A stretch of DNA of 64,000 nt from Candidatus Gottesmanbacteria bacterium (GCA_023245335.1 JAHFKK010000001.1:619282-683281); one strand, 5' to 3'; positions 8,253 through 59,886 are shown, counted from the first letter of the stretch. Program-made: numbers and translations. The notes: generated from the sequence alone by a model not told the origin.

Positions 8253-8262
8253 TACCACCCAT

Positions 8263-42930: not shown

Positions 42931-43760
42931 AACAATCGCGCGTTTCGATTATCATTCCTGCTAAGAATTCGGCTACGATGCTTTCCGCATGTCTACAAAG
43001 TATTGCGGGGCAATCATACGAGGACATTGAAATTATTATCGTTGACAGTAATTCCGCTGATGGGACCAAAGCGTTGGCAAAAAAATACGGTGCGATTCTC
43101 ATGCAATATGTCCCGAAGGTACCGAAAGGAACATTTGATGCTCCCTATAAGCGAAATTATGGAGTTGCTCATGCGCACGGAACATATGTGTACATCGTGG
43201 ATGCAGATATGGAATTGCCCAAAGGACTCATAGCTGAAGCTGTGAAATTGTGTGAAAAAGGAGCAGATGCGGTGATTCTCCCTGAAGATTCATTCGGTAT
43301 CGGACCTTGGGCTCGCGCAAAGAATCTGGAACGACAATGTTACTGGGGGGACGATACGATAGAGGCTCCACGTTTTTTCAAGAAATCCGTTTGGCACGAT
43401 TTTGGCGGATTAGATGAGTCACTGGGCGGCGGCGGGGATGATTGGGATATGTATGAGAAACTGAAGTATGAAGGGTACCACGTTATGCGGACAAAACTCA
43501 AAGTCGCTCATAATGAAGGGAAATTACACCTATGGGCCCTGATGAGGAAGCGATTTATGTACGGTAGAGATTCCGTACAATACATTCGTAAGAGACCAAT
43601 CGCCGGATTTGTCAGTTACTTCCCGGTACGGAAAGCTTATATTAAAAACTGGAGATTATTTATAAGTAGACCGAAGGACTCTGTTTACTTTATAATCATG
43701 AGATCCGCAGAGTATTTGGCTGGTCTAAGTGGAATTATATTTTCGTATATTATTAAATGA
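42927..43760 (+). CDS. GT2 glycosyltransferase
   Basis: 277 aa with 'VSIIIPAKNSATML', 'IVDSNSADGT' and 'VDADMEL'. ATGA overlap with the upstream GT4. Confidence 0.7.
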   Translation: MKQSRVSIIIPAKNSATMLSACLQSIAGQSYEDIEIIIVDSNSADGTKALAKKYGAILMQYVPKVPKGTFDAPYKRNYGVAHAHGTYVYIVDADMELPKGLIAEAVKLCEKGADAVILPEDSFGIGPWARAKNLERQCYWGDDTIEAPRFFKKSVWHDFGGLDESLGGGGDDWDMYEKLKYEGYHVMRTKLKVAHNEGKLHLWALMRKRFMYGRDSVQYIRKRPIAGFVSYFPVRKAYIKNWRLFISRPKDSVYFIIMRSAEYLAGLSGIIFSYIIK

Positions 43761-44734
43761 ATATTTTTTGGAAAAACAAACGAGTATTAGTAACTGGCGG
43801 AGCCGGATTTATTGGCTCACATGTTGTCAAAGAATTGGTAAAAAGAGAATCTAAAGTAACGATTGTCATATCTCCAAAAACTTCGATTGTTCATCTAAAG
43901 CTTTTATATGGTCCGATATTAGACTTGATAAGTGTTAAGAAAGCCGATTTATTGGTTTTTACTCAATTTCTAAAGGTGACGAAAACACAGGAAATCGTAC
44001 TAAATTTTGCTGCGCTGGATGGAGGAGCCGAATTTAAGCAAATTAACGAAACTGAAATTTTTAGGATAAATACTCAGTTAATATTAAATCTACTTGAGAG
44101 CAGTAGAATAAATAAGATCGACAGAGTTTTGATCATGAGTTCTATAGACATATATCCTAATGACCTTAAATTTCCCATTAAAGAAGAACATGCACATCTA
44201 AATGATTTCGTCGAAAATATTAGTGGTTACAGGTGGTCAAAACGAATAGCAGAAATTGCGGCCAATCTTTACTATCGCAAGTACGGTTTGAAAATAGCTA
44301 TCGTTAGGGCGGGAAACGTTTACGGTGAAGATGATTATACGGGTATAGCTAAAAAAAGAATTATTCCAACCTTTATCAATGCTGCATTAGAGGATAAGGA
44401 CATAATAATTTGGGGAAATACGGATCTAAAAAAATCTTATCTGTACATTTCGGATTTGTCTAAAGCGCTACTTGATGCGATTGAGAAATATCCAGTCGGC
44501 GAACCCATCAATATTGCAAGTTCAGAATATGTTTCGTTAATAGATCTCGTAAAATTAATACTTAAACTTACACACGGAAAGAGCAAAATTATTCATAAAA
44601 TTAGCACTGTCCCAATTAAGGGCCTATTTAAACAATCTATATCATCAAATAAAGCACTACGCGTTTTGGGATGGAAACCAAAAATCTCATTAGCAAAGGG
44701 CTTACAAAAGACGATCGAAAGTTTTCGTTCATAG
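43757..44734 (+). CDS. Divergent SDR-family NAD(P)-dependent sugar epimerase/reductase (low-GC island)
   Basis: 325 aa with 'VLVTGGAGFIGSHVV' and the YxxxK motif 'YRWSK'. Codon usage is AT-rich. Confidence 0.55.
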   Translation: MNIFWKNKRVLVTGGAGFIGSHVVKELVKRESKVTIVISPKTSIVHLKLLYGPILDLISVKKADLLVFTQFLKVTKTQEIVLNFAALDGGAEFKQINETEIFRINTQLILNLLESSRINKIDRVLIMSSIDIYPNDLKFPIKEEHAHLNDFVENISGYRWSKRIAEIAANLYYRKYGLKIAIVRAGNVYGEDDYTGIAKKRIIPTFINAALEDKDIIIWGNTDLKKSYLYISDLSKALLDAIEKYPVGEPINIASSEYVSLIDLVKLILKLTHGKSKIIHKISTVPIKGLFKQSISSNKALRVLGWKPKISLAKGLQKTIESFRS

Positions 44735-44793
44735 TTGCGTACTCGTTATATTCGTAATCATACGTATAAATGTATTTGTTATAATGCGATGTT

Positions 44794-45738
44794 ATGAGAA
44801 GCTATTTTAAAAATAAACGTATATTAGTTACAGGTGGCATGGGATTTCTCGGTACGAACGTAGTAAACAAATTACTACAAAAGGGTGTAAACAGAGATAA
44901 CATTATTATTCCTAGATCATCTGACTACGATTTGCGAAATGCCACCAATGTCAAAAAAGTTGTTAAAAATATTGATGTAATTATCCACTTAGCTGCAAAA
45001 GTCGGTGGAATAGGCTTTAACAAAGAGCATCCAGCTGAAATGTTCTATGACAACTTAATTATGGGTATAGAACTGATGCATCAGGCGTATCTGGCGCACG
45101 TCCAAAAATTTGTTGCGGTAGGAACAATATGTTGTTATCCCAAATACACTAAAGTGCCTTTTAAAGAGGAGAATTTATGGGACGGGTATCCAGAAGAAAC
45201 AAACGCGCCATATGGTCTTGCTAAAAAAATGCTTCTGGTCCAATCTCAGGCGTACAGGCAGCAATACGGATTTAACGCGATTTTTCTCTTGCCAGTAAAT
45301 TTGTACGGATGCGGTGATAACTTCAACCCGGATTCTTCACACGTCATCCCGGCATTAGTTAAAAAGTTTTTTGATGCTAAGACGAAGGGACTTGCGAAAG
45401 TAGACGTTTGGGGCACAGGAAGGGCAACAAGAGAGTTTCTCTATGTCGAGGATGCAGCGAAAGCAATAATAATGGCAACTGAAAAATATAATAAGCCTGC
45501 ACCAATTAATATTGGAGCGGGTTTCGAGATATCGATCAAAGAATTAGCATATACGATCGCGAAAATTATTGGTTATAAAGGAAAGATAGTTTGGGATACG
45601 ACGAAGCCGGATGGGCAGCCCAGAAGAATGTTAGATACCGCCAAGGCACAAAAAGAGTTCGGTTTCAAAGCAACAACATCATTTGCTGAGGGGTTGAGGA
45701 AAACCATTACCTATTATGAAAAAGAATTTATTAGTTAA
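44794..45738 (+). CDS. fcl: GDP-L-fucose synthase (GDP-4-keto-6-deoxy-D-mannose 3,5-epimerase/4-reductase)
   Basis: 314 aa with 'RILVTGGMGFLGTNV', 'APYGLAKKMLLVQSQAYRQQYGFNAIFLLPVNLYG' and 'NPDSSHVIPALVKKF', which are hallmark Fcl segments. Confidence 0.85.
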   Translation: MRSYFKNKRILVTGGMGFLGTNVVNKLLQKGVNRDNIIIPRSSDYDLRNATNVKKVVKNIDVIIHLAAKVGGIGFNKEHPAEMFYDNLIMGIELMHQAYLAHVQKFVAVGTICCYPKYTKVPFKEENLWDGYPEETNAPYGLAKKMLLVQSQAYRQQYGFNAIFLLPVNLYGCGDNFNPDSSHVIPALVKKFFDAKTKGLAKVDVWGTGRATREFLYVEDAAKAIIMATEKYNKPAPINIGAGFEISIKELAYTIAKIIGYKGKIVWDTTKPDGQPRRMLDTAKAQKEFGFKATTSFAEGLRKTITYYEKEFIS

Positions 45739-46348
45739 GTTCGGACAATATAAATGTGATATTTTCCATAAGTTGAACTTTTCGTTCAAAAGAGGCAATA
45801 GTATTCTTGATGTCGGATGCGGCGACGGCGTTGATGCTGAAATATTCATCAAAGTGTACGGTCTGAAAGTGTATGCCCTCGATGTTTTCAAGCACGAAAA
45901 CATACGAAATATTAAAAGTCTCAAATTTACGAAGGGGAGCATATTCAAATTGCCGTTTGAGGACAAGAGATTTGATTATGTTTTTATACATGACGTCCTG
46001 CATCATATCGACGAAAAGACTCAAAGCACGAGTAAACACCTGAAAGCACTTGCTGAGTTAGAAAGGGTTTGTAAAAAGGGAGGGACCGTTATCATCATTG
46101 AGGCCAACAGGTTTAATCCTCTTACATACCCTCATATGGTTTTGATGATGGGGCACAACCATTTTCGGCAGAGTTATTTCGTTTACCTGTTAAATAAAGC
46201 ATTTGTACGATGTAGGTTTAAATACTTTGAAGCACATTTTTATCCACAAAGCTTTCTTGGACTATTCAAAGTGTATGAAAAATTTATGGAATTGCAGCCC
46301 TTTAAAGGGATTTTAAATTATAATACCGCATTCATTGAGGCTCGATAA
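45716..46348 (+). CDS. Class I SAM-dependent methyltransferase
   Basis: 210 aa with motif I 'ILDVGCGDGVDA' and motif 'FIHDVLHHI'. Confidence 0.6.
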   Translation: MKKNLLVKFGQYKCDIFHKLNFSFKRGNSILDVGCGDGVDAEIFIKVYGLKVYALDVFKHENIRNIKSLKFTKGSIFKLPFEDKRFDYVFIHDVLHHIDEKTQSTSKHLKALAELERVCKKGGTVIIIEANRFNPLTYPHMVLMMGHNHFRQSYFVYLLNKAFVRCRFKYFEAHFYPQSFLGLFKVYEKFMELQPFKGILNYNTAFIEAR

Positions 46349-46403
46349 ACTTTTTTACCCTGAATAAGAAGGTTCCAATAATTCGTAAACAAATCAACAT
46401 AAA

Positions 46404-47558
46404 ATGTATTTACAGAATAAGAGAATTGTTATCGTGTCGCATGAATATGCTACTGGACCTTCACATTCCTTAGAGGACTATCTTAGTTCTAAAGTAAAAA
46501 ACCTTCTTTTTATCGGCCATCCTTTTGTTTTTGCGCATGACACTAGGTCACATTATCGATTATATACGCATGGGGTTACGACACCGGTACGTAACCGATT
46601 CATATCGTTCAGCCAGAACCAAATAATCAGCATAATGAAGGATATCGTGCTGACCGTTATTTGGGTTCTAAACAACGGCAAATTCGATATATATGTTGGA
46701 GTTGATAATGTAAATACATTTGTAGGCATTTTTCTGAGAAAGATCGGGGTTGTTAAAAAGGTCGTATTTTATACAATTGACTATGTACCATTTAGGTTTA
46801 CCAACAAATTGCTAAATAGACTTTATCATAACCTCGACGTGTACGGAGTAAGACACAGCAATATCGTTTGGAACCTGTCGTCGTCAATGGTTGATGGCAG
46901 AGAAAAAGCCGGTCTTGAAAAAGCATTCAGATATAAACAAATCGTAGTTCCCGTCGGCACAGAAAGCAATGTCAAAGACGTCCCCCGGAAAAAAATTAAA
47001 AGATTTCATGTCGTACATATGGGGCATCTGATTAAAAAACAGGGGATTCAGCTGGTTATTGAGGCTATTCCGCTTATTATCAAGAAAATTCCGGAATTTC
47101 ACTTTGATATTATCGGCGGAGGTGACTACGAGGACTATTTGAAGGCATTAGCTCAAAAGTTAGGGGTGTCAAAGTACATTACATTTTACGGGTACATACA
47201 GAGTCATCAGGAAATAGAAAGAATGCTTTCTTATTGCGCTGTCGGGATAGCGCCGTACGTAGATAGCCCGGACAGTTACGTGAGATATGCAGACCCAGGC
47301 AAGGTAAAAGCCTATCTCGCAGCAAGTTTGCCTATAATAATAACCCGGGTCACCCCAATGGCGCATGAGATAGAAAGAAATAGATGTGGTATTTCTATAC
47401 CTTATGACAAAAAAATACTGGTAAAAGCCATCACTACATTGTTATCGGATGATAAGTTATTGTCGGAATTTAGACGCAATTCAAAGGCTATGGCAAAAGA
47501 GTATAGCTGGAACAAAGTTTTTGATCGGGCGATGGAAATTACTCTGCGCGCGGTCTAA
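46404..47558 (+). CDS. GT4-like glycosyltransferase (paralogue of 49419..50699)
   Basis: 384 aa. The GT-B C-terminal domain carries 'HVVHMGHL...GIQLVIEA' and 'AVGIAPYVDS'. The N-domain resembles the downstream paralogue. Confidence 0.65.
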   Translation: MYLQNKRIVIVSHEYATGPSHSLEDYLSSKVKNLLFIGHPFVFAHDTRSHYRLYTHGVTTPVRNRFISFSQNQIISIMKDIVLTVIWVLNNGKFDIYVGVDNVNTFVGIFLRKIGVVKKVVFYTIDYVPFRFTNKLLNRLYHNLDVYGVRHSNIVWNLSSSMVDGREKAGLEKAFRYKQIVVPVGTESNVKDVPRKKIKRFHVVHMGHLIKKQGIQLVIEAIPLIIKKIPEFHFDIIGGGDYEDYLKALAQKLGVSKYITFYGYIQSHQEIERMLSYCAVGIAPYVDSPDSYVRYADPGKVKAYLAASLPIIITRVTPMAHEIERNRCGISIPYDKKILVKAITTLLSDDKLLSEFRRNSKAMAKEYSWNKVFDRAMEITLRAV

Positions 47559-47565
47559 TTTTGTA

Positions 47566-47574
47566 TGCTATAAT
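47566..47574 (+). promoter_or_regulatory. Candidate extended -10 promoter element (TGcTATAAT) in a 128 nt intergenic gap
   Basis: The sequence 'tgctataat' lies about 112 nt upstream of the 47687 start. A Shine-Dalgarno 'aaggag' at 47676..47681 sits 5 nt before the ATG. Confidence 0.25.
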
Positions 47575-47686
47575 AATTTTCGTTCACAATCTCAAAATCT
47601 ATTTACGATAACGAGGTATATTCGTTTATCCCTACCCTATAGTTTAGATATTTAGACCTTTTGTGTTATCAATTTAAGGAGAATAT

Positions 47687-48349
47687 ATGTTTCAGAAAAT
47701 AAAGAATTACATTATAGAACATAGAGCTCAGGATCTATATTACTTGTGGACCTTATCCAAAGAGCTTTCCGGAGCAAAATCGGTCCTGGATGTAGGATGC
47801 GGTTATGATTCACCTCTGGCTAAGCTACGCAAATCGTTTACCAGCGAAGGAATCGATATTTTTAGGAGCAACATAATTCTAAGCAGGAAAAATCATATGC
47901 ATGACAGACATAAACTTGGAGATATTCGGAAGTTATCCCAAATTTATAAGTCGAATAGTTTTGACGCGGTAATAGCGCTTGACGTAATTGAACACGTGAC
48001 AAAAAAGGAAGCAATCAAACTGATTAAAAGTTGTGAGCAAATCGCCAGAAAGAAAGTTATATTGGTGACTCCAAACGGTTATTATGAACAGGGAGAATTA
48101 TTTCATAATCCTTATCAGGCTCATCATTCTGGTTGGGATAAGGAGACCTTAAGAAAATTGGGTTATCGAGTAAACGGTTTACGAGGTTTTAAATATTTAT
48201 GGGGTAAGAACGCGGATATAAAATATAAACCATGGTTATTTTGGGGATTTGTGACATTTATGTCACAATTTTTGTTTTATTATATTCCGGCCTTGTCATT
48301 TGATCTTTTGGCTACTAAGAATATCGTTAAAAGCGAGATCAGAGAGTGA
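47687..48349 (+). CDS. Class I SAM-dependent methyltransferase
   Basis: 220 aa with motif I '[13 protein letters not shown]' and '[11 protein letters not shown]'. Confidence 0.6.
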
Positions 48350-49413
48350 TACAAATAATGAAAAAGATTCTCATAACCGGTTCCGCGGGTCTAATTGGAT
48401 CTGAAGCCGTCAGATTTTTTTGCAACAAAGGATACGAAGTCATTGGCGTAGATAACAACATGAGACAATTTTATTTCGGCAAGGAAGCGAGCACCAAATG
48501 GAATGAACAATTACTAGAGGCGAAGTATCCTAAACAGTATCGAAATTATAGCGTCGATATCCGTGATGAAAAGCGAATTGCAAAAATATTTCAAAAAAAC
48601 GCCATTGATATGATTATTCACACCGCTGCACAGCCTTCTCACGATTGGGCGGCCAAGGAACCGATAACAGATTTTACCGTAAATGCACTTGGCACCTTGG
48701 TGCTATTAGAAAATTATAGAAAATATTGCCCAGAAGCAGTATTTATTTTCACCTCCACGAACAAAGTATATGGGGATATGCCAAACTTATTGCCATTGAT
48801 AGAGCAGGATTCTCGTTTTGAACTTCCTCGGACTCATCATTTCTATAAGGGTATAAACGAAACGATGAGCATAGATAATTCTAAGCATAGTATTTTTGGC
48901 GTATCAAAAGCATCGGCAGATTTATTAGTACAGGAGTATGGAAGATATTTTGGTTTAAAGACGGGCGTCTTCCGCTGTGGTTGTTTAACAGGCCCGGCGC
49001 ATTCAGGCACGCAACTCCATGGATTTTTAGCATATTTGGTTAAATGTATTAAAACGGGCAAAACATATACAATTTATGGTTATAAAGGTAAGCAAGTTCG
49101 AGATAATATTCATTCATATGATCTAGTTAATGCATTTTACTATTTTTATAAAAACCCATCATCCGGCGCCGTTTATAATATGGGAGGCTCAAGGCACTCG
49201 AACGTGTCTATACTCGAAGCCATAAAGAAAATCGAGAGAGGGCTTGATAAAAAAGGCAAGTTTCATTATTCGAATACCAACAGATCGGGGGATCATATCT
49301 GGTATATATCAGATGTTTCCAAGTTTCAAAAAAAATACCCCAAATGGAAATATAAATACGGCATTGACGAAATAATCGATGAACTTTGTATTGGCGTACA
49401 TACAGGGGAATAA
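48346..49413 (+). CDS. NAD-dependent epimerase/dehydratase, CDP-paratose 2-epimerase-like
   Basis: 355 aa with '[14 protein letters not shown]', '[10 protein letters not shown]' and the YxxxK motif '[10 protein letters not shown]'. Confidence 0.7.
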
Positions 49414-49418
49414 CGCTC

Positions 49419-50699
49419 ATGATTATGCGAGCAAAAAGACCTCATATTGGCAATCGAAATGATAAAATAAACCAGCCCCGACCTCTAAATAAAAATACTT
49501 CAGTCGTATTCGCAACATTCTCACTTCATATTCGAGGGAGAAGATTATCTAATAACGGCAACGTAGAGCCGTTACGAGATTTTCTCATCTCAAGGATTAA
49601 AAGGTTTGTGTTAATAGAACAACCTCTTCCTGGAAGCGATTACGTCATGCCCAAAATAGCAGTTTATGAGCACAACAGACTTGCAAAATTAACACGTTCT
49701 TCTTGGTGGCTATACATTCTCTATCCCTTATTGTCTTTGACTAATGCGAATGGAACCCAAGTCAGCTTTAAGATAAGGGATTTTTTAGCGGTACTTGATT
49801 GGTGCCTGCGAGAAAAATCTAAGATTGATTATATGATCGGAATGGAGTCTATCAATACGCTCGCAGGGATTATTTTACGGAAATTCAACATTGTCCGTAA
49901 AGTAGTCTATTATGAATTTGACTACTCCCCGAAGCGATATACACAGTCCTGGTTTAATTGGATTTATTTACAACTTGATAAATTTTGCGCTACTCACGCT
50001 GATTATATCTGGGAAGTATCGAAAGCAATGCATACCGCTCGAATAGACGCGGGATTTACTCCTCATAAGTCCGCATCAGTGATACATGTTCCTATCGGCC
50101 TTTACCCGCAGCAAATAAAAAACGTTCCAGAGCATATGAATAGGATGTTTAAGTTAGTATATATGGGAACGTTGGGGACCGATAACGGCCCTGAACTGGC
50201 GATAGAATCAATCCCAATTATCGCAAGGAAATTTCCTTCAGTTTGTCTCTACATCATAGGGGACGATAACAACAATCTAGTGAGGCTTACGGCTATAGTA
50301 CGAAGTCTGAAGATTGAACGAAATGTCAAATTTATGGGCCTCATGACTAATAGAGAAGAAATAGCAACTTTGATGAGTCGTATGTATATAGCGTTGGCCC
50401 CGTATAGGGCAATTTCTGGGTCGCCAAGATACTATGCCGACTCAAGTAAAATTCGTGCTTATTTTGGTGCAGGTTTACCCGTGATCACAACTGCAGTTCC
50501 GCCGTTGGGGATAGAGGCAGCTAAAAAGGGTGCGGCCCTCATAGTGAAAGACGACGCCCAAGATATCGCCCAAGCCGTAATAAAGCTTTTTACTAACCAT
50601 AAGAGATATTCCGACATGAGAAATAAAGCAGTTGAATTTGCCAAAGACAATACGTTCGAAAAAGGGTTTACACGCGCATTTTCCCAAATGACATTGTAA
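49419..50699 (+). CDS. GT4-like glycosyltransferase (paralogue of 46404..47558)
   Basis: The track ORF begins at 49386. The Met at 49419 is preceded by 'agggga' and clears the upstream stop. The C-terminal domain carries 'YMGTLGTDNGPELAIES' and 'ALAPYRA'. Confidence 0.65.
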   Translation: MIMRAKRPHIGNRNDKINQPRPLNKNTSVVFATFSLHIRGRRLSNNGNVEPLRDFLISRIKRFVLIEQPLPGSDYVMPKIAVYEHNRLAKLTRSSWWLYILYPLLSLTNANGTQVSFKIRDFLAVLDWCLREKSKIDYMIGMESINTLAGIILRKFNIVRKVVYYEFDYSPKRYTQSWFNWIYLQLDKFCATHADYIWEVSKAMHTARIDAGFTPHKSASVIHVPIGLYPQQIKNVPEHMNRMFKLVYMGTLGTDNGPELAIESIPIIARKFPSVCLYIIGDDNNNLVRLTAIVRSLKIERNVKFMGLMTNREEIATLMSRMYIALAPYRAISGSPRYYADSSKIRAYFGAGLPVITTAVPPLGIEAAKKGAALIVKDDAQDIAQAVIKLFTNHKRYSDMRNKAVEFAKDNTFEKGFTRAFSQMTL

Positions 50700-50711
50700 A
50701 ATAACAAATAT

Positions 50712-51599
50712 ATGAAGAAAGTTTTTGATTACGAAGAAACATTTATGGGGCTCACACCCGACAGATCCCCAGGTTTGGACAGAAGAATATATCAATACGA
50801 TCATAGGTTTAGGAAATTTGTTGACACCGTAAAATTAGCAAAAGGCAGAATAATCGATGTGGGTTGTGGGGGAGGCTCATTTATAGAAAGTCTGGCTAAT
50901 TATTATCCAAACGTACACATGTACGGCTGTGATATAAGTAAAAAAGCTATTTTTTACGCAAAAAAAACCGGCAGCGGGAAGGTTAACTATGGTGTGATTC
51001 GCAATGGTAAATTTCCTTATAAAGACGATTTTTTTGATGTGTTGATATGCGTAGATGTCTTGGAACATGTTCCGGACGTACATTTTTTTCTTAATGAAGT
51101 CCGGCGAGTGCTTAAGAAGAAAGGATTATTCTACCTGGCGGTTCCTTGTGAAGGAGAACCTCTGACTTATACGTGGTTCTTGCAAAAGATCGGTATCGGA
51201 GACAAACTAACGTTTAAACATTTTGGGCATATTCATCCGGAATTTACGCACCGATTTGTACGTAAACTACTTAACCAGCATAAGCTAAAGATAGTGGATA
51301 CTTCTTACGATATGCACTTTTTATCCCAAGTATTTATGCTGTTGCAATATTTTCTACCTAAGGAATTGCTTAATGTTGTATTGGGCAACAATAGGGCTGC
51401 TAAATACTATGATAAGTCGGTAGTGATAGCTGAAAATCAAAAAAAGCTGCAAAAGGATCCAATTTATATCTTTAGAGAAGTCTGGTTTGGAATTTGGAGG
51501 ATGTTGAGCCCGGTCAGCTTATTTGAATTCATTTTATTTAATAAAGTAAGTATCACAAGCTGGAGATTGCTTGCTCTCTCTCAAAAGCTTGAGAAATAA
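50712..51599 (+). CDS. Class I SAM-dependent methyltransferase
   Basis: 295 aa with motif I 'IIDVGCGGGSFIESL' and 'ICVDVLEHV'. Confidence 0.65.
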   Translation: MKKVFDYEETFMGLTPDRSPGLDRRIYQYDHRFRKFVDTVKLAKGRIIDVGCGGGSFIESLANYYPNVHMYGCDISKKAIFYAKKTGSGKVNYGVIRNGKFPYKDDFFDVLICVDVLEHVPDVHFFLNEVRRVLKKKGLFYLAVPCEGEPLTYTWFLQKIGIGDKLTFKHFGHIHPEFTHRFVRKLLNQHKLKIVDTSYDMHFLSQVFMLLQYFLPKELLNVVLGNNRAAKYYDKSVVIAENQKKLQKDPIYIFREVWFGIWRMLSPVSLFEFILFNKVSITSWRLLALSQKLEK

Positions 51600-51613
51600 T
51601 ACCAAGTGGGAAA

Positions 51614-54600
51614 ATGATTAAATATTGGACCAAATATAAAGAAATTTTCTTCCTTCTACTGATAAGTTTAATTCCCCTTTTGTGGTATGGGACCGGATCC
51701 CACCAGCTCATATTTAGTAATGACGTCGGTTATAATTTAAACCCGGTCGGATTATTCAAATCTAAATTGTTCGCGTGGGAAAGCACATTGAATTTCGGCT
51801 CCACCCAGGCGGAATTAACTGGTTTCATTCCCAATTTCAGTATAGAGGCTCTTCTGACGTTATTAAGTCATTCCGTTTTTAACGCTCAAAAAATATACGT
51901 CGTAAGTTGGTTTTTCACAATTATGATTGTCATGTATTGGTTTGTGAAAAAGATTCCGGTGTTTGCCAACAAACCCTATATGGCGTTTATGGCGGCTGTG
52001 CTCTTCGGTATAAATCATTTTCAGCTTTACGCCTGGAGAATATTTTGGAGAGGCTTATTTTCAACCTATGTGACCCTGCCGATATTTTTTATTTTATTGA
52101 CTGAATATTTTGAGGAGAGAAGAAGTCTTATACGGACGTCAATTTTTATTTCGCTTACATTATTTTTATTTAACGGCGGTGGATCTCCTCCGACATTTGG
52201 TGCCCTTATTTTATTGGTGCTGACTCTAGTTTTGTACTATTTCCTTTCCGGATTATTGCATAAGAGTGCTATACATTTCCTGAAGAAATGTACACTTCTT
52301 TTCATTGTCGCCGGGCTGTTCACGTTTTTAATTTCCTCATATTGGTTACTTCCATACATTTATTACGCGAAAAATTCTTATTCAACGATTGTTAGCGGGA
52401 TCGGGGGCGTGTTGCAGACACTGGCCTGGACTGACGTTGTGAGCGCTAACACGAGCATTTTAAATCTATTGAGAGCGAGCGGTACTGCTTTATGGGGTGC
52501 GGATGTGGCAGGATATGCACAGGTTTATTCTCAGAACCCGTTTTTCATTATTCTAAGCTATCTGGCGCCGGTATTAGCGCTGTCAGCAATTATCGTAGCC
52601 AAAAAAAGCAGCGAGAGGAAATACATTTATATATTTTCCGTATTTGTAGTCATTGCTGTGCTTTTTTCCGCCGGAACGCATGCTCCGTTGAGAGGATTTT
52701 ATGTGTTTTTACTGAAAACAATACCTGGGTATGTTATTTTTCGGTCTCCGATTTGGAAATTCGGCGGGTTATTATGGTTTTCATATGCAGTTTTAATCTC
52801 ATTTACTATTAGCACCTTCAAAGAACGGATATACGCGTATTCTGATCGAATGAAGGAGGTGAAAAAATTGATTTCACATCTCATTCCCGTAATGTTTCTA
52901 GTAATAGTTTTTGGCTACAATTTTCCATTTTTCAATGGAAATTTTTATAAGTGGAATGTGGGATTAGATATTATGGAGGAAATCCCCCAGTATGTTTTGG
53001 ATTTTGGAAAGTGGGTAGATACAAATCTAAATGACGACTCAAGAACATTACTTTTGCCCGATTTGAATACTAATTGGAGAGCTGAGGCGTATAAGTGGGG
53101 TTATTGGAGTTTAGGTCCTGCGACTTATTACGTAACAACGAAGAATACTCTCACAAACGAATCTAGCCTGATTAATAAAGAACCGCCAATAGTAGATAGT
53201 TTATATGCTGCGTTACGAAACAATGACCCCATCTGGCTAAATTTGGCTAAATTACTGAATGTCCGGTACCTGCTTTTACAAAACGATTTTTTTTACAATT
53301 TAAGTTGGCAACCTACCACACCCCCGTCGGTTTATAAGAGTATTCTCACAAACAGTAAGGACGTAGCACCGCTACAGACATTTGCCGAATGGGAATTATA
53401 TAAAGTAACGGGTAATACAACGCCGATTATATATACACCGACGGTACTAAATTTCGCCGGAACGGACGGGACTGCAATAAAAGACATATTGGAAATTAAT
53501 AGCAATAGGAGCCTTAGCGCAAGGCCGCTTATCGTATTCTTGGATGACTCCATAACAGACAAAGTGAAAAACAATCTTCCTGAGGGAAATAATGTAATAA
53601 TTCAGGCCAAGTGCGTATTGTGTAAACCTGAAGAAATTACTAGCGTGACAAATAGCATCTTTTCAGAAATACCCTATGCAAGTTTACTTCCCGATTCAGT
53701 CTTTTATTTTTATATTTCATGGAAGGAAGATAGGATGCTCAAAAATACCAGTAACTTTGCCGACCAAAGAATCGATGTCGACTTAGCCCTTGCGGACAAG
53801 CGTCTGTCAGAAATAAATCAGTTAATAAGCAGGAAGGATAGATCAGGATCGAACGATTTAATTAAACTTACCGCTCAGAGATATAGTAATTTACTTGCAG
53901 ATATTATGCGTCAGCAAACGAACCTTTCAGAAAGTGCAAGAAATGACTATCTTGTTCGTATTTTGGAATACCTAGAAGCGCAAAGAAGATATATACGTGA
54001 GATTAGTGATCAAAACATGATTTCTAAATTGATACCGGATCTATCATATTCTATTTTAAGGGCGACACAGGAAATTAAAACAAATGTATGGATGACAAAT
54101 GAGGAGAATGACCAAAAGTTTACCGTTAACTTAGACAAGGCTGATAATTATTCCTTAACTATCTCGAACAATAAGGGCAAGCAGACAAGCGTTTTTATCG
54201 ACGGCAATCGACAAACCGCCGAAGATACTGTTTTTTTAACGCAGGGTGTTCATCAGGTGGAATTAAGGAGTCCCAATGATAATCTGGTTGATAGTCAGCA
54301 CGCAACATCTAGCGGTCAATATGATCTCAACTATGGGGAAAAAGTAAGTTTCCCCGTTTCGGGATTCTCCGGTCAAAATACTTATCAAATCAAGTTTAAT
54401 TATAGAATCATTCAGGGAAAAGCTCCGAGTGTCATTCTTCACCAGGACAATGATGAGAAAAGTATCGGGACGGATTTGTCATCCGATAACAGTCTGAAAG
54501 ATGATGGAAAGTGGAATAATTTTACAAAGGTTTTTTCATCTAATGTAGATGCAAAATCTGGCGTTATAGATATTATAAAAATGGGTTTTGATAACAGCGA

Positions 54601-55141
54601 AAGTATATTTGAAATTAGTAATCTGACCGTTAATGAAATGGTAACGCCGCAATTGCTTTTCGTTCGAAAATCAGGTGGGTCTAGTCTTTATGCTCCACGA
54701 ATCACTTTCCAAAAACTTAGCCCAATCAGATATAGAGTCCATGTCGAAAACGCCACAGCTCCATATTTCTTAAATTTTGGCGAGCAGTTTGACAGGTCTT
54801 GGGAGATATATATGAAGAACTCTCAACCCCTCTCTCTGAGGGACGGTCATTTTACCTCGTATTTTAATGGTGATGTTAAAGAAATACGTCCGCAAAATAT
54901 TTTTCTTGACAGAGAACTTTTTACCGATGTGATGTCGAAAGCATCAGGCGGAAATTTTCATTTCCAGACCAACGGATTTGGTAACGGTTGGTACATTACT
55001 AAAATAGGAACCTATGACATAAGTATTGTGTATTGGCCTCAAGTATTTTATTATTTTGGCATTATTATTTCCGGAATAATACTTTTAATAAGTCTCGCGA
55101 TTTTATTTAAACTAAACAAATTAAATGATAAACAAAATTAA
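51614..55141 (+). CDS. Giant integral membrane protein (1175 aa): polytopic N-terminal domain, about 700 aa extracytoplasmic region, C-terminal TM anchor; putative GT-C-like enzyme of unassigned family
   Basis: Long uninterrupted ORF. About 12 N-terminal TM helices are followed by a large hydrophilic region. The C-terminal 'GTYDISIVYWPQ' plus the TM 'YYFGIIISGIILLISLAILF' echoes the YfhO C-terminal module. Confidence 0.6.
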   Translation: MIKYWTKYKEIFFLLLISLIPLLWYGTGSHQLIFSNDVGYNLNPVGLFKSKLFAWESTLNFGSTQAELTGFIPNFSIEALLTLLSHSVFNAQKIYVVSWFFTIMIVMYWFVKKIPVFANKPYMAFMAAVLFGINHFQLYAWRIFWRGLFSTYVTLPIFFILLTEYFEERRSLIRTSIFISLTLFLFNGGGSPPTFGALILLVLTLVLYYFLSGLLHKSAIHFLKKCTLLFIVAGLFTFLISSYWLLPYIYYAKNSYSTIVSGIGGVLQTLAWTDVVSANTSILNLLRASGTALWGADVAGYAQVYSQNPFFIILSYLAPVLALSAIIVAKKSSERKYIYIFSVFVVIAVLFSAGTHAPLRGFYVFLLKTIPGYVIFRSPIWKFGGLLWFSYAVLISFTISTFKERIYAYSDRMKEVKKLISHLIPVMFLVIVFGYNFPFFNGNFYKWNVGLDIMEEIPQYVLDFGKWVDTNLNDDSRTLLLPDLNTNWRAEAYKWGYWSLGPATYYVTTKNTLTNESSLINKEPPIVDSLYAALRNNDPIWLNLAKLLNVRYLLLQNDFFYNLSWQPTTPPSVYKSILTNSKDVAPLQTFAEWELYKVTGNTTPIIYTPTVLNFAGTDGTAIKDILEINSNRSLSARPLIVFLDDSITDKVKNNLPEGNNVIIQAKCVLCKPEEITSVTNSIFSEIPYASLLPDSVFYFYISWKEDRMLKNTSNFADQRIDVDLALADKRLSEINQLISRKDRSGSNDLIKLTAQRYSNLLADIMRQQTNLSESARNDYLVRILEYLEAQRRYIREISDQNMISKLIPDLSYSILRATQEIKTNVWMTNEENDQKFTVNLDKADNYSLTISNNKGKQTSVFIDGNRQTAEDTVFLTQGVHQVELRSPNDNLVDSQHATSSGQYDLNYGEKVSFPVSGFSGQNTYQIKFNYRIIQGKAPSVILHQDNDEKSIGTDLSSDNSLKDDGKWNNFTKVFSSNVDAKSGVIDIIKMGFDNSESIFEISNLTVNEMVTPQLLFVRKSGGSSLYAPRITFQKLSPIRYRVHVENATAPYFLNFGEQFDRSWEIYMKNSQPLSLRDGHFTSYFNGDVKEIRPQNIFLDRELFTDVMSKASGGNFHFQTNGFGNGWYITKIGTYDISIVYWPQVFYYFGIIISGIILLISLAILFKLNKLNDKQN

Positions 55142-55493
55142 TACATCATATAAACACGTCCTAGCGTATCTTGATACGTATCATGTTAAGTTTATATTTA
55201 TTATATTGAGCGTGTTAATGTTGGACGCGGTATATAAAATACCATACATTAATATTTTTTTCTCTCAGGAGCTGTTTTTTTTGCTCGAGTGGATCATTAT
55301 CATTAATGTATTAGAATTTTCTCATAATGTCTCGTTCTATATGGCTCTATTACTATTGGGTTTTGCCATGTTACTTATGATTACAAAAAGTGATCAGACC
55401 GCCGAAAAAATGGGGAATTTTGCTTTTATCGTATTTACGGTCGGCCTCGGGCAGGCTATTTGGTCTAATTTAAGAAAGGCTCCGGTGCTGTAA
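55125..55493 (+). CDS. Small hypothetical membrane protein (about 3 TM)
   Basis: 122 aa, hydrophobic. It overlaps the stop of the giant protein by 17 nt. No recognisable motif. Confidence 0.35.
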   Translation: MINKINTSYKHVLAYLDTYHVKFIFIILSVLMLDAVYKIPYINIFFSQELFFLLEWIIIINVLEFSHNVSFYMALLLLGFAMLLMITKSDQTAEKMGNFAFIVFTVGLGQAIWSNLRKAPVL

Positions 55494-55690
55494 TTTTCTC
55501 TTTTGTTTCTGTTCCTTTTAGTATCCTACTTCCTGATATGCATCCAGAACGAAGTTTTAAGTAGGCGGTCATCAGCTTGTTCGACTCGTACTTCTTCATT
55601 TTCGAAATGAATATAATATCGCAGATAATTGCATTATGTCATATACTTTATCGTATCAATTGTCTCGACACGAACATTTAGGGTAATCAT

Positions 55691-57751
55691 ATGAATCTGG
55701 TTATGAAAAAATTGTTATTAGTTTCAATATTTATTTTAGGTTTTCTTTTCCTGTTTTCTGGGATGGGCGTACACACGTCAGGAGATTGGCTATACCTGTA
55801 TCCGGAAACGGCAAAACAATTTTTGTTGACTCCAACGGTTTGGACATCACACTCCGGTCTGCTCGGAGGAGCGAACCTTTTTGTTACCGGGTTAGATTGG
55901 CTTTATAGTGCCTCCTCGAAAATTTTCCTCGTAGACCTTCATTTATCATGGTCTTTAATTGAACGATTACTTTGGTTTCTTCCGTTGTGGCTAATTGGGG
56001 CTGTCGGATCTGTCCGGTTCAGTAATAGGTTCAGTTCATCAGTCTTTGTATATCTTAGTTTACTATTTGTGTTTAACACGTATTTTCTTATGATTACCGG
56101 GGGAGGTCAGATGGGTGTGGCCTGGGGTTATGCGCTCGTACCGTGGGTATTAGACGGATTCTTTAATTTGTTCGATGCGCTTCGGATCAATTTGAAACAT
56201 TTATGGCACAAAACATATTTGGTGGCGATCGTATTTGGTATACAATTATTTTTTGATGCACGGATGGCGTACCTGACGCTGTTCGTAGTCGGTCTATATC
56301 TCATCTGGTTATTTGTAATTCGGGAGGCAGATAGATCTTTTCTCCTGCGTTGCTTGATAAGTTCTTTTATATTTGCGATTTCTGTTATCGGATTACATGC
56401 TTTTTGGCTGCTCCCGTTTATAAAATTTCCGGTTTCAATATCAGAATCGCTGGGTTCTGTATATACTTCTATAGATGCAGTTAAATTCTTCAGTTTTGCG
56501 GACTTTTCTCATGCGCTATCTCTCTTACATCCAAATTGGCCGGAAGATATTTTTGGAAAAACGTACTTTCTGCAGCCCGAGTTTCTTCTTCTTCCAATAA
56601 TTGCGTTTTCAGCTCTTTTATTTATTCGTGATAATTCCAAGGATAAGTGGCAGGAAATACAGATTCGTTTCTTCGCGATTCTCGCTATAGTCGGAGCCTT
56701 TTTGGCAAAAGGTACAAATCCACCGTTTGGCGGCCTATATGTATGGCTCTTTAACAGTATCCCGGGATTTGTCATGTTTCGAGACCCGACGAAGTTTTAT
56801 CTATTTATAGCCTTATCCTACTCAGTATTAATACCGTATGCATGTGCGCATATAAGTCAGGTAGTTTACACAGCCCTGAAACGCTCTGGTACACACATTC
56901 CGTTGCGAGTTCTGGCGGTTGGCGTTTTCGCCTTCTTTATCATAGGTTGGTCATATTTGCATAGAGAGTTATTACTTGGACGGCTTGGAGGTACGTTTAG
57001 ATCACAGGTTGTTCCGGTGGAATATATCCAACTGAAAGATTTTTTGACAGCAGATCTATCATACAAGCGTGTATTATGGGTGCCCTCAAAAAGCAGATTT
57101 GGGTTTTATTCTGATGATAAACCGGGTATATCGCTTCAAGCTATCAACGTAGCGAGCTCATCGTCGTTTATTTCCTGGATATCCGATCAGAAGCATGATG
57201 AAGAGCTTGCAAGGTATTCGGTTGCGTATATCGTTGTGCCGACGGATCCGCAGTCGGAATTATTTGTTAGTGATCGGAAATATGATCGTCAACTTCGGTT
57301 GTCAGTAATAAAGGCAATAGACGCGACCGGGAGATTCACACGCGTTACTTCGATACCTGACATTGCGGTTTACAAATCGAATAAATATTATGGGCACGCG
57401 TTTTGGGCTAATGATCCCAACATACCTGTCGTAATCAATCGTATAGAACCGACACATTACACGGTATCCATACCAAATCACAAGTCCTTAGAAGATTTAA
57501 TATTTTCCGAGTCGTTCGATCCTTACTGGGAGTTAATTATCAATGGTACTCGGATACGCCCGGTAAAAACAGTAGATGGTCTTCAGCAATATCGCCTTCA
57601 GGGCGGTGTGTATGGCCAGGCGATTATATATTACCGACCGCAGGGTTTTGAGTCCGTCGGGTTATGGATTTCAGGCATCACTCTTTTGACCATTGTCGTA
57701 TGGATTGGGTATGATAGTGTTATCTTATGGCACAAAAAGCGTGCGTCGTGA
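55691..57751 (+). CDS. Large integral membrane protein (686 aa) with C-terminal extracytoplasmic domain and terminal TM anchor; putative GT-C-like
   Basis: The N-terminal loop is loosely similar to that of the 1175 aa protein. The C-terminus 'GGVYGQAIIYYRPQ' is followed by the TM 'LWISGITLLTIVVWIG'. A roughly 200 nt AT-rich gap lies upstream. Confidence 0.55.
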   Translation: MNLVMKKLLLVSIFILGFLFLFSGMGVHTSGDWLYLYPETAKQFLLTPTVWTSHSGLLGGANLFVTGLDWLYSASSKIFLVDLHLSWSLIERLLWFLPLWLIGAVGSVRFSNRFSSSVFVYLSLLFVFNTYFLMITGGGQMGVAWGYALVPWVLDGFFNLFDALRINLKHLWHKTYLVAIVFGIQLFFDARMAYLTLFVVGLYLIWLFVIREADRSFLLRCLISSFIFAISVIGLHAFWLLPFIKFPVSISESLGSVYTSIDAVKFFSFADFSHALSLLHPNWPEDIFGKTYFLQPEFLLLPIIAFSALLFIRDNSKDKWQEIQIRFFAILAIVGAFLAKGTNPPFGGLYVWLFNSIPGFVMFRDPTKFYLFIALSYSVLIPYACAHISQVVYTALKRSGTHIPLRVLAVGVFAFFIIGWSYLHRELLLGRLGGTFRSQVVPVEYIQLKDFLTADLSYKRVLWVPSKSRFGFYSDDKPGISLQAINVASSSSFISWISDQKHDEELARYSVAYIVVPTDPQSELFVSDRKYDRQLRLSVIKAIDATGRFTRVTSIPDIAVYKSNKYYGHAFWANDPNIPVVINRIEPTHYTVSIPNHKSLEDLIFSESFDPYWELIINGTRIRPVKTVDGLQQYRLQGGVYGQAIIYYRPQGFESVGLWISGITLLTIVVWIGYDSVILWHKKRAS

Positions 57752-58668
57752 CGGGAGGGGCGGGATTTATCGGAAGTCATTTAGTCGATGCCTTACTTGA
57801 GAAAGGGTATCGTGTTATCGTCCTTGATAATCTCCTCACAGGGAAAGAAGACAATCTTTCCGAGGCCAAAAAGAATCCTCAGTTTACCTTCATCCGACAT
57901 GATGTAACTCAGACGCTTCCGGATATGGGAACCGTCGATTATATATATCATTTGGCCTCTCCTGCTTCGGTCGTCGATTATCAAAAGTTTGCGGAGGAAA
58001 CGGCATTAGTCAACTCGGTCGGCACACGTCTCATGCTGGAATATGCAAAAAATCATCATGCCCGTTTCTTATTTACGTCAACCAGCGAAGTCTACGGGGA
58101 TCCCAAAGAGCACCCTCAAAGTGAGTCGTACTGGGGCAACGTCAATCCCAACGGCGTCAGGAGCTGTTATGACGAGTCCAAACGGTACGGTGAGATGATG
58201 ACGATGCTCTACTATCGGAAATACAAGACAGATGTCCGGATTATTCGTATTTTTAACACCTACGGGCCAAGACTCAAGAAAGACGATGGTCGCGTCGTAT
58301 CCAATTTTATCAATCAGGCGTTGACGGGGGAGCCTCTCACCATCTACGGAAACGGGTCGCAGACGCGGTCGCCGTGCTACGTCAGTGATATGGTCTCCGG
58401 TCTTATCGCCGCGATGGAGAACGATGCCGCAACAGGCGAGGTAATCAATATCGGTAATCCCGAAGAATACACCATGATAGATCTTGCGAATAAAGTGAAG
58501 GCGATGACCGGCTCACAATCGGAAATAGTATACCTTGAATTGCCTGTTGATGACCCGACCAGGAGACGGCCTGATATAGCTAAGGCCATGAGAATTTTGG
58601 GTTGGAAGCCGACGGTTACCTTCGATGAAGGCCTCAAAAAGACGGTCGAGTATTATAAAAGTACATGA
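57727..58668 (+). CDS. uxs: UDP-glucuronate decarboxylase (UDP-xylose synthase)
   Basis: 313 aa with 'VVTGGAGFIGSHLVD', 'TSTSEVYGDPKEHPQSESYWGNVNPNGVRSCYDESKRYGE' and 'RIIRIFNTYGPR', which are highly characteristic of UXS. Confidence 0.85.
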   Translation: MAQKACVVTGGAGFIGSHLVDALLEKGYRVIVLDNLLTGKEDNLSEAKKNPQFTFIRHDVTQTLPDMGTVDYIYHLASPASVVDYQKFAEETALVNSVGTRLMLEYAKNHHARFLFTSTSEVYGDPKEHPQSESYWGNVNPNGVRSCYDESKRYGEMMTMLYYRKYKTDVRIIRIFNTYGPRLKKDDGRVVSNFINQALTGEPLTIYGNGSQTRSPCYVSDMVSGLIAAMENDAATGEVINIGNPEEYTMIDLANKVKAMTGSQSEIVYLELPVDDPTRRRPDIAKAMRILGWKPTVTFDEGLKKTVEYYKST

Positions 58669-58886
58669 AACTTCAGGATGTCCTCTTTTTGGTCACACTC
58701 GCGGTGCTTTTGTGGGTCAGGAAGCCCCGGTTGATGGCCTGGGCGGGAATCGGAAGTCTCGTTTTGGCGATTCCGCTTTTTGCACTCCGCATATTTTTCA
58801 CGGCAGAGCGGCTGACCTGGTACGCCGCCGCATTTTTTGGCTTTTTCATCCTTATTTCATACTTCAGGCCCCATACGGTACAATAA
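58665..58886 (+). CDS. Small hypothetical membrane protein (2 TM)
   Basis: 73 aa. ATGA overlap with the uxs stop. Two hydrophobic helices. It ends 4 nt before the galE start. Confidence 0.35.
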   Translation: MKLQDVLFLVTLAVLLWVRKPRLMAWAGIGSLVLAIPLFALRIFFTAERLTWYAAAFFGFFILISYFRPHTVQ

Positions 58887-58890
58887 CAGC

Positions 58891-59886
58891 ATGAAGATTT
58901 TGGTGACGGGTGGCGCAGGCTACATCGGCAGCCACATGACCCGCATGCTTGTGTCACGAGGATACGATGTCGTTGTCCTTGATACCATGGAGTTCGGTCA
59001 CAAGGAAGCCCTGCCGGATAAAGCTACACTTGTCGTCGGAAATGTAGCTGATGAGAACGTCGTCCGGAAGCTATTTTCAGACCATACTATAGACGGCGTC
59101 CTGCATTTTGCTGGCTACATCTCCGTCGAGGAATCCGTGAAAGACCCTATCAAATACATGAAAAATAATACGATAGGTCCGGTCAACCTTCTCGAGTGTA
59201 TGCGGGGAGCCGGTGTCAAATATATTATTTTTTCTTCTACCGCAGCTGTGTACGGCAATCCTATGACGGTGCCTATCCCGGAGGATCACCGTAAAGAACC
59301 TATCTCGCCGTATGGCCTGTCCAAATGGGTATTTGAGGAGCTTTTGCGGGTTTATGACCGTTCATATGGCTTACGAAGCATCGCATTTCGGTACTTTAAT
59401 GCGGCAGGCGCGAGCTTAGACGCTTTGCATGGAGAATTGCACCGGCCGGAAACCCACCTCATACCTCTGGCGTGCGCTGCAGCCTTGGGGATGAGAGACG
59501 GATTTTCGGTATATGGCACGGATTATGATACCCCGGACGGGTCAGCACTTCGGGACTATATCCATGTTGAAGATTTATGTGCAGCTCATATTCTCGGTCT
59601 GGAAGCATTGGGAAACGGTCACGAAACTCAGGTTTATAATGTGGGAACAGGAGTCGGCATCAGCGTAAAAGAGGTTATTAGAGCCGTCCGAAAGATATCG
59701 GGGCGCGATTTTTCCATAAAGGAGTCCGGCAGAAGGTCCGGAGACGCGTCGGTTCTCGTGTCTGATCCCGCTCGAATTATGAAGGAGTTTGGATGGAAGC
59801 CGAAATACTCCGATATTGATGCTGTCGTAAAAACCGCACTTGCCTGGCACACGTCACATCCCGAAGGCTATGAGAATCGCCATTGA
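58891..59886 (+). CDS. galE: UDP-glucose 4-epimerase
   Basis: 'MKILVTGGAGYIGSH', 'YGLSKWVFEE' (YxxxK) and 'FRYFNAAGA' are classic GalE segments. The start is chosen at the Met at 58891 within the longer track ORF. Confidence 0.8.
   Translation: MKILVTGGAGYIGSHMTRMLVSRGYDVVVLDTMEFGHKEALPDKATLVVGNVADENVVRKLFSDHTIDGVLHFAGYISVEESVKDPIKYMKNNTIGPVNLLECMRGAGVKYIIFSSTAAVYGNPMTVPIPEDHRKEPISPYGLSKWVFEELLRVYDRSYGLRSIAFRYFNAAGASLDALHGELHRPETHLIPLACAAALGMRDGFSVYGTDYDTPDGSALRDYIHVEDLCAAHILGLEALGNGHETQVYNVGTGVGISVKEVIRAVRKISGRDFSIKESGRRSGDASVLVSDPARIMKEFGWKPKYSDIDAVVKTALAWHTSHPEGYENRH

Follow-up and report, generated by a model that had tools for sequence, protein, structure and literature searches.

Two putative AftD-like GT-C glycosyltransferases with conserved small membrane partners in a glycan locus of a Gottesmanbacteria bacterium

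Gene organization of the locus

In a stretch of 64,000 nucleotides from a Candidatus Gottesmanbacteria bacterium (GCA_023245335.1, JAHFKK010000001.1:619282-683281; the window), we have analyzed two neighboring genes for giant polytopic membrane proteins together with the small open reading frame (ORF) between them. The first gene (51614..55141, + strand) encodes a protein of 1175 amino acids, the long protein, and the second (55691..57751, + strand) a protein of 686 amino acids, the short protein. Both are predicted to be GT-C glycosyltransferases similar to AftD of mycobacteria, an assignment based on translation, profiles, AlphaFold2 models and Foldseek for the long protein and on homologs, invariant columns, AlphaFold2, Foldseek and hhalign for the short one. 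The ORF in between (55125..55493, + strand) encodes a membrane protein of 122 amino acids with about four transmembrane (TM) helices; the first 17 nt of this ORF are shared with the end of the long gene. The coordinates and strand of all three ORFs are exact in the initial annotation, which was made from the DNA alone, and the strings it had read in the first loops of both large proteins, 'GTGSHQLIFSNDVGYNL..W.ST' (long) and 'GMGVHTSGDWLYLYPET..W.S' (short), are indeed present. The real start of the short gene is probably the codon of M5 at 55703, since this methionine is near-invariant in the alignment of the short family. With hundreds to thousands of homologs for each large gene (at least 915 for the short protein) and a mutual match between both proteins, the large genes are not chance ORFs.

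Family assignment and remote homology to AftD

Direct scans of the long, small and short proteins with Pfam and NCBIfam did not yield a significant family; the only matches, all sub-threshold, were DUF5667, Sec61_beta and MmpA. The GT-C_AftD model of Pfam does not match either large protein even at E ≤ 1. Similarly, phmmer searches of each large protein against PDB sequences returned noise only, and a search with homolog P0042 returned nothing. As far as single-sequence searches are concerned, the label of an unassigned family was thus appropriate.

The relationships become visible at the level of alignments, of which three were used: 41 long homologs (A1), 50 short homologs (A2) and a joint profile of 92 sequences (A3). 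A comparison of A1 with A2 by hhalign gives a probability of 99.9 and an E-value of 9e-36 over 574 columns, spanning the entire membrane domain and the first outer domain. BLASTP pairs residues 222-412 of the long protein with residues 217-398 of the short protein (E 2e-16), a stretch with the common motif GT(H/N)xP..G.Y..L...IPG...FR.P.KF, and in a second stretch residues 1030-1078 with 580-630. Judged by these alignments, the long and short proteins are paralogs.

Mycobacterial AftD (6W98) is matched by profile A1 with an E-value of 2.4e-7. The joint profile A3 reaches an E-value of 2.2e-24 (88.7 bits) against 6w98_A in three collinear stretches. In chain numbering, residues 45-316 belong to the TM domain, 407-570 to the soluble GT-C domain and 1197-1276 to the last beta-sandwich with the returning TM helix. 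In addition, a member-by-member scan finds the Pfam family GT-C_AftD (PF11847, formerly DUF3367) at E ≤ 0.01 in 18 of the 41 long homologs, with a best E-value of 4.7e-12, and in 3 of the 50 short homologs. Both proteins are very distant relatives of AftD and represent an un-named deep branch of the AftD/YfhO-like GT-C group. The remote-homology comparison with AftD/DUF3367 that the initial annotation had proposed thus led to a match by the joint profile as well as to AftD as the top Foldseek structure (see below), and its suggestion of an undescribed family has to be abandoned in favor of remote AftD/DUF3367 kinship.

Predicted structure and domain anatomy

AlphaFold2 models built from the homolog alignments are confident for both proteins, with a predicted local distance difference test score (pLDDT) of 91.0 and a predicted TM-score (pTM) of 0.91 for the short protein, and values of 85.8 and 0.82, respectively, for the long protein. 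When the models were run against the PDB with Foldseek, AftD ranked first in both cases. For the long model (AftD, E 3.7e-15) it is followed by yeast and human STT3 (8agc, 4.5e-6; 6s7o, 7e-5) and ArnT, for the short model (AftD, E 8.7e-8) by PglB (5ogl, 1.2e-4), AftA and ArnT. Among membrane proteins only AftD, PglB/STT3 and AftA have E ≤ 0.001, with ArnT at 0.007-0.014; the Foldseek probability of these GT-C matches is about 1.00 (0.98 for ArnT against the long model). Transporters and G protein-coupled receptors (GPCRs) appear among the Foldseek matches with non-significant E-values only, and the probability does not exceed 0.3 for major facilitator superfamily (MFS), GPCR and ABC entries. 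The confident models and the matches to AftD, STT3, PglB, AftA and ArnT therefore predict that both large proteins are membrane glycosyltransferases of the GT-C fold.

The long protein starts with a membrane GT-C domain of about 11 TM helices (aa 1-445; 51614..52948), delineated by the helices of the model and by the A3 alignment to AftD 45-316. It is followed by an extracytoplasmic alpha/beta domain, the 'soluble GT-C' domain (aa 446-690; 52949..53683), which aligns with AftD 407-570 and is modeled as alpha/beta. Two elements that are not present in the short paralog come next: a DUF5667-like insert modeled as a five-helix bundle (aa 698-824; 53705..54085) and a first beta-sandwich (aa 833-1019; 54110..54670) resembling a carbohydrate-binding module (CBM). 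The DUF5667 match itself covers residues 691-767 with 24 bits, under the cutoff of 27, and is shared by 13 of the 41 homologs. The first sandwich is matched in Foldseek by the CBM16 modules 2zez and 3oea (probability 1.00, TM-score about 0.5) and by the hyaluronan-binding module 4d0q. A second beta-sandwich (aa 1029-1140) and a C-terminal TM helix (aa 1142-1174), together spanning 54698..55135 and supported by BLASTP, HMM (hidden Markov model) and hhalign comparisons, complete the protein; all these domains are encoded on the + strand. In the model of the short protein, the membrane domain comprises residues 1-428, the outer domain 443-562, the single sandwich 570-648 and the terminal helix 650-685; the helical bundle and the CBM-like sandwich are missing.

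The terminal module of sandwich and TM helix is common to the long protein, the short protein, AftD and YfhO. It is the only part that aligns when A2 is compared by hhalign with a YfhO protein encoded in the window (probability 87%). The N- and C-termini of both proteins are rich in lysine, which fits, on a crude hydropathy basis, an in/out/in topology that exposes the large region to the exterior. The initial view of polytopic GT-C-type candidates with a large extracytoplasmic region and a single C-terminal anchor is borne out, and the long protein has additional modules of a beta-sandwich, CBM-like kind in the C-terminal region that was to be parsed for them.

Conserved residues

The first outer loop of each family has an invariant aspartate, which is D37 in the long protein (codon 51722-51724; 41 of 41 homologs) and D32 in the short protein (codon 55784-55786; 50 of 50 homologs). 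Both align with each other in hhalign and lie about 10 residues past TM1, where GT-C enzymes have their catalytic or donor-binding acid, a role that we presume for these aspartates as well. The statement in the initial annotation that a DE-type loop is missing overlooks this acidic residue (41/41 and 50/50).

Further motifs of the long family are G354..P358..FRSP..K382-F383 in the membrane domain, and R477..P482, WGYWS (495-499) and Y..ND558 in the soluble domain. The lysine of FR(S/D)P..KF (K382 in the long and K368 in the short protein) is invariant across both families. Three motifs are shared with AftD, namely W..(F/L)G in the first loop, R-x-L-x-x-P (R477..P482) and Y-h-h-h-x-N/T-D, and D558 of the long protein aligns with native D535 of AftD. 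In AftD, the essential residues are K39, D41, E251, K361 and D474 (bioRxiv 10.1101/2019.12.22.885152). The chain numbering of 6W98 runs 3 ahead of the native one, as can be read from the printed alignment, where E251 is labeled E254 and D474/E475 are labeled D477/E478. D37 is a likely candidate for the counterpart of AftD D41. K382/K368 sit at a position similar to that of AftD K361; this segment is unaligned, and a rerun of A3 at E ≤ 10 to recover it gave no further stretch. In the region of AftD E251 the alignment is ambiguous.

Small membrane proteins and the conserved module

Directly 3' of the long gene there is an ORF of 105-150 aa with about four hydrophobic segments, as seen in three homolog loci and subsequently in 80 genome loci that were fetched using the short-family alignment. 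Orthologs were found by synteny plus HMM, since a word-index homolog search with the 122-aa ORF retrieved only the ORF itself. For 24 of 26 A1-type long genes, a member of the small family begins at -88 to +5 nt relative to the long gene's stop codon, a count that includes both copies of a tandemly duplicated long gene in L057 and L084. In these two Levybacteria-type genomes the unit of long GT-C and small 4-TM protein is duplicated 5' of a single short GT-C (L057, 253-7999; L084, 1014-8767). In the alignment of 22 positional orthologs (A4), the motif P40-Y41-x-N43 that follows TM1 is near-invariant, and TM4 is preceded by an 'AE..G' motif. The small ORF is a real, conserved and un-named family of membrane proteins. 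In the window copy a 19-residue hydropathy scan finds three hydrophobic segments, while the sequence taken together with the orthologs indicates about four. With the N-terminus inside, both motifs would face outward, on the side of the GT-C active site.

In size, in its 3-4 TM helices and in its location next to a GT-C gene, the 122-aa protein resembles the GtrA/GtcA type. A second comparison is with AftD itself: the long protein ends where TM12 of AftD ends, and AftD goes on to a separate 4-TM domain that is similar in size and topology to the 122-aa protein. The gene could thus be a split-off counterpart of AftD TM13-16, an analogy that fits the topology. Neither the GtrA idea nor the split-gene idea has sequence support, since the A4 family did not match any family in Pfam (searched member by member) or any entry in the PDB; GtrA (PF04138) matches 0 of the 22 orthologs at E ≤ 1, and A4 shows no similarity to the AftD sequence in the PDB search. 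An 800-aa member of the short family on a Logan contig (P0168) carries a small-protein-like 3-TM segment at its N-terminus (profile E 6.7e-5 in a set of 300 sequences); this may be a fusion that exists in nature or two genes merged by gene calling. The small ORF is separated from the short gene by an AT-rich gap of 197 nt (55494-55690), in which consensus promoter-like hexamers occur. The 3' end of the small ORF itself contains a weak terminator-like hairpin (55443-55457).

The short gene is followed by genes for an NAD-dependent sugar epimerase/dehydratase (57727..58668, + strand, 313 aa; Pfam Epimerase and GDP_Man_Dehyd) and a conserved 2-TM protein of 73 aa (58665..58886, + strand), the usual downstream partner of the short GT-C. 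The family of the latter, generally 72 aa, has the consensus MK.QD..F...IPLF.FW.FFTAERL.YY. The window copy reads MK.QD..F ... IPLF..FFTAERL.WY, matches the family HMM with an E-value of 6e-26 and is 52% identical to its ortholog in L005; the family does not match any Pfam entry. Among 67 loci, 42 have a member of this family no more than 3 kb downstream of the short GT-C. In 17 of these 42 the genes adjoin, usually with a 4-nt overlap, and in 17 others a single gene of about 310 aa precedes it, as does the epimerase in the window. The 72-aa family is better conserved than the accompanying enzymes and shows a weak likeness to the C-terminal half of the 122-aa family.

The short gene is also regularly preceded by a related large GT-C. 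Among 72 short-family loci with sufficient upstream sequence, 57 have such a gene directly upstream on the same strand: an A1-type long protein in 23, another relative of at least 950 aa in 18 and a relative of 700-950 aa in 16, leaving 15 with none. Another set of genomes (L012, L013, L015, L019, L046, L050 and others) has a weakly related GT-C of about 770 aa ahead of the short GT-C. A protein of 315-350 aa, with a C-terminal hairpin resembling the small-protein family, lies between this GT-C and the short GT-C, about 1 kb upstream; such intervening proteins (320-350 aa) were considered as GtrB-like synthases and rejected, as they have no Pfam domain.

The tight gene overlaps suggest co-translation and physical association. 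EmbA and EmbB act as a heterodimer, which offers a precedent for a long and a short protein acting together. On a tentative note, the long GT-C, the 4-TM 'PYxN' protein, the short GT-C, the optional epimerase and the 72-aa protein may form one hetero-oligomeric machine for glycan assembly at the outer face, specific to Microgenomates-type bacteria of the Candidate Phyla Radiation (CPR). In such a machine the GT-C paralogs would act as a pair like the Emb proteins, and the small proteins would be obligate subunits, either split AftD TM13-16 or new handlers or flippases of lipid-linked sugars.

Proposed function and alternative explanations

We propose, with a probability of roughly 0.78, that both large proteins are AftD-like GT-C transferases of a Patescibacteria (CPR, Microgenomates-type) bacterium that move sugars from polyprenyl-phosphate donors onto a surface glycan at the outer face of the membrane. 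The analysis demonstrates homology, fold, conserved residues and synteny; donor, acceptor, activity and the roles of the small proteins are inferred, along the lines of AftD, YfhO/GtlB, Gtr* and GT136 enzymes. Single sugars would be transferred from a polyprenyl-phosphate-sugar donor to a growing cell-surface glycan at this outer face of the membrane. The invariant aspartate of the first loop would lie in the active site as a catalytic or donor-binding residue, the extracytoplasmic alpha/beta domain would close the active-site cleft, and the beta-sandwich with the C-terminal TM helix would tie this domain to the membrane. The acceptor glycan would be the product of the GT2, GT4, epimerase, methyltransferase and Wzx genes in the neighborhood. 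In the long enzyme the helical stalk and the CBM-like sandwich may hold the polymer, and the short paralog may make a second, different linkage. The 4-TM and 73-aa proteins are probably membrane subunits, which might stand in for AftD TM13-16 or handle the lipid-linked donor in the manner of GtrA or GacJ; precedents for GT-C enzymes working with small proteins of 3-4 TM helices have been described (PMC8035078; PMC11127046).

Known systems provide partial models for this organization. AftD is composed of TM1-11, a soluble GT-C domain, three CBMs, TM12 and a separate TM13-16 domain (bioRxiv 10.1101/2019.12.22.885152). The enzyme (Rv0236c or its M. abscessus counterpart, 6W98) shares with the window proteins the GT-C core of about 11 TM helices, the alpha/beta domain right after the last core helix, CBM-type sandwiches, the return to the membrane by a single helix (TM12 in AftD), and the first-loop and soluble-domain motifs. 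However, AftD has three CBMs, where the short protein has one sandwich and the long protein has two along with a helical bundle. Its TM13-16 belong to the polypeptide, whereas neither window protein has an equivalent and a separate 4-TM gene follows the long gene. Moreover, the host is a CPR bacterium with no arabinogalactan pathway in view, and the genes occur as a long/short pair. YfhO/GtlB-type GT-C enzymes work with a lipid-phosphate-sugar synthase and a small protein of 3-4 TM helices (PMC8035078). In these multi-component systems, too, the GT-C is a large protein that has an extracellular domain and ends in a TM helix, and the C-terminal module aligns; yet the window proteins miss the YfhO model, the small proteins miss GtrA/GtcA, and a GT-A synthase gene is not adjacent. 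In Gtr-type and GT136 systems (GtrA/GtrB/Gtr*, ORF12/14/15; PMC11127046) a CBM-bearing GT-C similarly performs glycosylation after polymerization at the outer face, with a flipped polyprenyl-phosphate-sugar. They differ in the GT-C family, and the present module has two GT-C paralogs and un-named small partners, while a synthase dependent on phosphoribosyl pyrophosphate (PRPP) was not seen. EmbA, EmbB and EmbC combine a GT-C with C-terminal CBMs and are encoded by adjacent paralog genes, but possess 15 TM helices in another domain order, and none of them is among the structural matches at E ≤ 0.001.

Several points weigh against the proposed explanation. Neither window protein alone passes any Pfam or NCBIfam threshold, the short-family profile A2 on its own finds nothing in the PDB, and the sequence identity to AftD amounts to about 11-12%. 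On ungapped extension D37 and D32 fall 2-3 residues off AftD D41, and the HMM alignment starts just past D41. The columns aligned with AftD D474/E475 are non-acidic and non-conserved in both families, the short protein of the window reading 'SDD' at this position. A polyprenyl-phosphate-sugar synthase is not encoded within the block of low GC content that holds the two genes (see below), and none of the window ORFs that were scanned with Pfam has a UbiA/DPPR-synthase or DprE1/E2-type domain. As genes of the decaprenylphosphoryl arabinose (DPA) pathway were thus not seen among these ORFs, arabinofuranose is unlikely to be the sugar donated.

The nearest alternative, which we consider unlikely, retains the mechanism and changes the label and the acceptor: the proteins would be YfhO-type GT-C enzymes decorating teichoic acid-like polymers, i.e., a secondary cell-wall polymer, from C55-P-GlcNAc or a similar donor. 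CPR bacteria are thought to have Gram-positive-like envelopes, in agreement with such an acceptor, and three bona fide YfhO genes are located in the same window, one of whose products shares the aligned sandwich-TM module mentioned above. The Pfam family YfhO (PF09586) is also found at E ≤ 0.01 in 3 of the 50 short homologs (best E 1.1e-6), but the window proteins themselves do not match it at E ≤ 1, and the homologs match GT-C_AftD far more often (18/41) and more strongly. AftD is the sole significant match among PDB sequences, in a comparison that is one-sided, with no YfhO among the PDB matches. The ranking of STT3 and PglB directly after AftD in the structural searches raises a further option, that of an oligosaccharyltransferase-like enzyme (STT3, PglB, AglB) that glycosylates pilins or S-layer proteins from lipid-linked donors, and the Trp-rich WGYWS (495-499) of the soluble domain is indeed near the location of the WWDYG motif of oligosaccharyltransferases. 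Nevertheless, the counterparts of WWD(Y/W)G are WGYWS in the long family, which is non-acidic, and RFG.xS in the short family, and the matching segment of AftD itself is 'TWGLTRDE'. Homology at the sequence level is found to AftD only. With the WWDYG motif lacking and CBM-like modules pointing to a polysaccharide acceptor, such a role is highly improbable.

Least credible of all is a reading of both proteins as non-enzymes, either transporters or scaffolds, e.g., for MMPL/MmpA-like lipid delivery, or as Wzy-like polymerases or ligases. The sole transporter-like match, to MmpA of NCBIfam (short protein residues 300-393, E 6e-5), scores 21.7 bits against a cutoff of 210. Transporters are not among the significant structures, and a transporter, MMPL or scaffold identity was rejected on the fold of both models in Foldseek, which also have the membrane topology expected by the initial annotation; the invariant first-loop aspartate together with the GT-C fold argues for catalysis. 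The AftD-like transferase pair remains our preferred interpretation.

Distribution and genomic context

The module recurs in Levy- and Gottesmanbacteria (Patescibacteria), and the genomes with named homologs are labeled Gottesmanbacteria, Levybacteria/Levyibacteriota, Roizmanbacteria or 'Patescibacteria group'. Identical copies of the window protein are present on contigs from two other samples. In a search of 1.84 billion cluster representatives (50%-identity clusters, metagenomes) the A1 HMM matched 13,732 at E ≤ 1e-3, 9,036 at E ≤ 1e-10 and 3,228 at E ≤ 1e-30, and the best 150 matches are essentially full-length (1036-1204 aa). Our literature searches on AftD-like enzymes of CPR bacteria did not find any. 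The assignment to the AftD branch, the pairing of a long with a short protein, the two small membrane proteins conserved next to them and the restriction to Microgenomates-type CPR are modestly new; we found no publication on them. The envelope chemistry of CPR/Patescibacteria is almost unknown, although these bacteria with their tiny genomes rely on the surface for host attachment, and the window illustrates how much of a genome of about 1.2 Mb is devoted to surface glycans. Two large 'dark' families gain a place in the AftD branch, a testable function and candidate catalytic residues (D37/D32), and the un-named small membrane proteins become candidates for new subunits or lipid-sugar handlers. 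This is of use for annotation and for CPR envelope biology without overturning an established idea.

The two genes belong to a low-GC glycan block of eleven co-directional genes (43757..57751, + strand), delineated by composition profiles and Pfam: three epimerase/dehydratases, three S-adenosylmethionine-dependent methyltransferases, two GT4 enzymes, the long GT-C, the small protein and the short GT-C. The GC content is 0.32-0.44 in the block vs. about 0.49 in its flanks. It falls sharply, from about 0.45-0.49 to 0.32-0.40, at the epimerase gene at 43757 and climbs back gradually to 0.48-0.50 where the short GT-C gene ends. In appearance the block is a cassette of a variable or acquired nature, as O-antigen and capsule loci typically carry.

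The window as a whole is a glycan locus with several GT2 and GT4 enzymes, many epimerase/dehydratases, methyltransferases and two Wzx-type flippases. Pfam assigns seven PMT_2 proteins (14509-16203 and 16207-17844, both on the - strand; 21822-23333, 24642-26306, 26309-27988, 29085-30749 and 30763-32241), two GT87 proteins (23383-24645 and 36907-37989), one PTPS_related protein (32246-33883) and three YfhO proteins (4900-7209, 8206-10530 and, on the - strand, 17837-20191). Including the long and short proteins next to these 13, about 15 recognizable GT-C enzymes are encoded in 64 kb. Three GT2 enzymes (37994-38710, 39923-40750 and 106-852) resemble the polyprenyl-phosphate sugar synthases AglJ/PpgS/ArnC, with scores under the equivalog cutoffs, and are candidates for such synthases.

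Some other large ORFs of the glycan locus lack a Pfam family at E ≤ 0.01, i.e., 12401-14131 (+ strand, 576 aa), 20195-21922 (- strand, 575 aa) and 34656-35822 (+ strand, 388 aa). The gene at 63051-64000 runs off the end of the window and corresponds to a gene for a 1002-aa protein without a Pfam family (L001, 21438-23528); L005 has a 1058-aa ORF at the same position. This protein was considered as a third paralog and rejected (hhalign probability 2%). Finally, an ORF of 194-204 aa at 59840-60454, with a weak match to the N-terminal domain of Glyco_transf_4, directly precedes a full GT4 of 376 aa (60458-61588). The same pair recurs in L004 and L005 and may represent a split or accessory GT4 N-domain.

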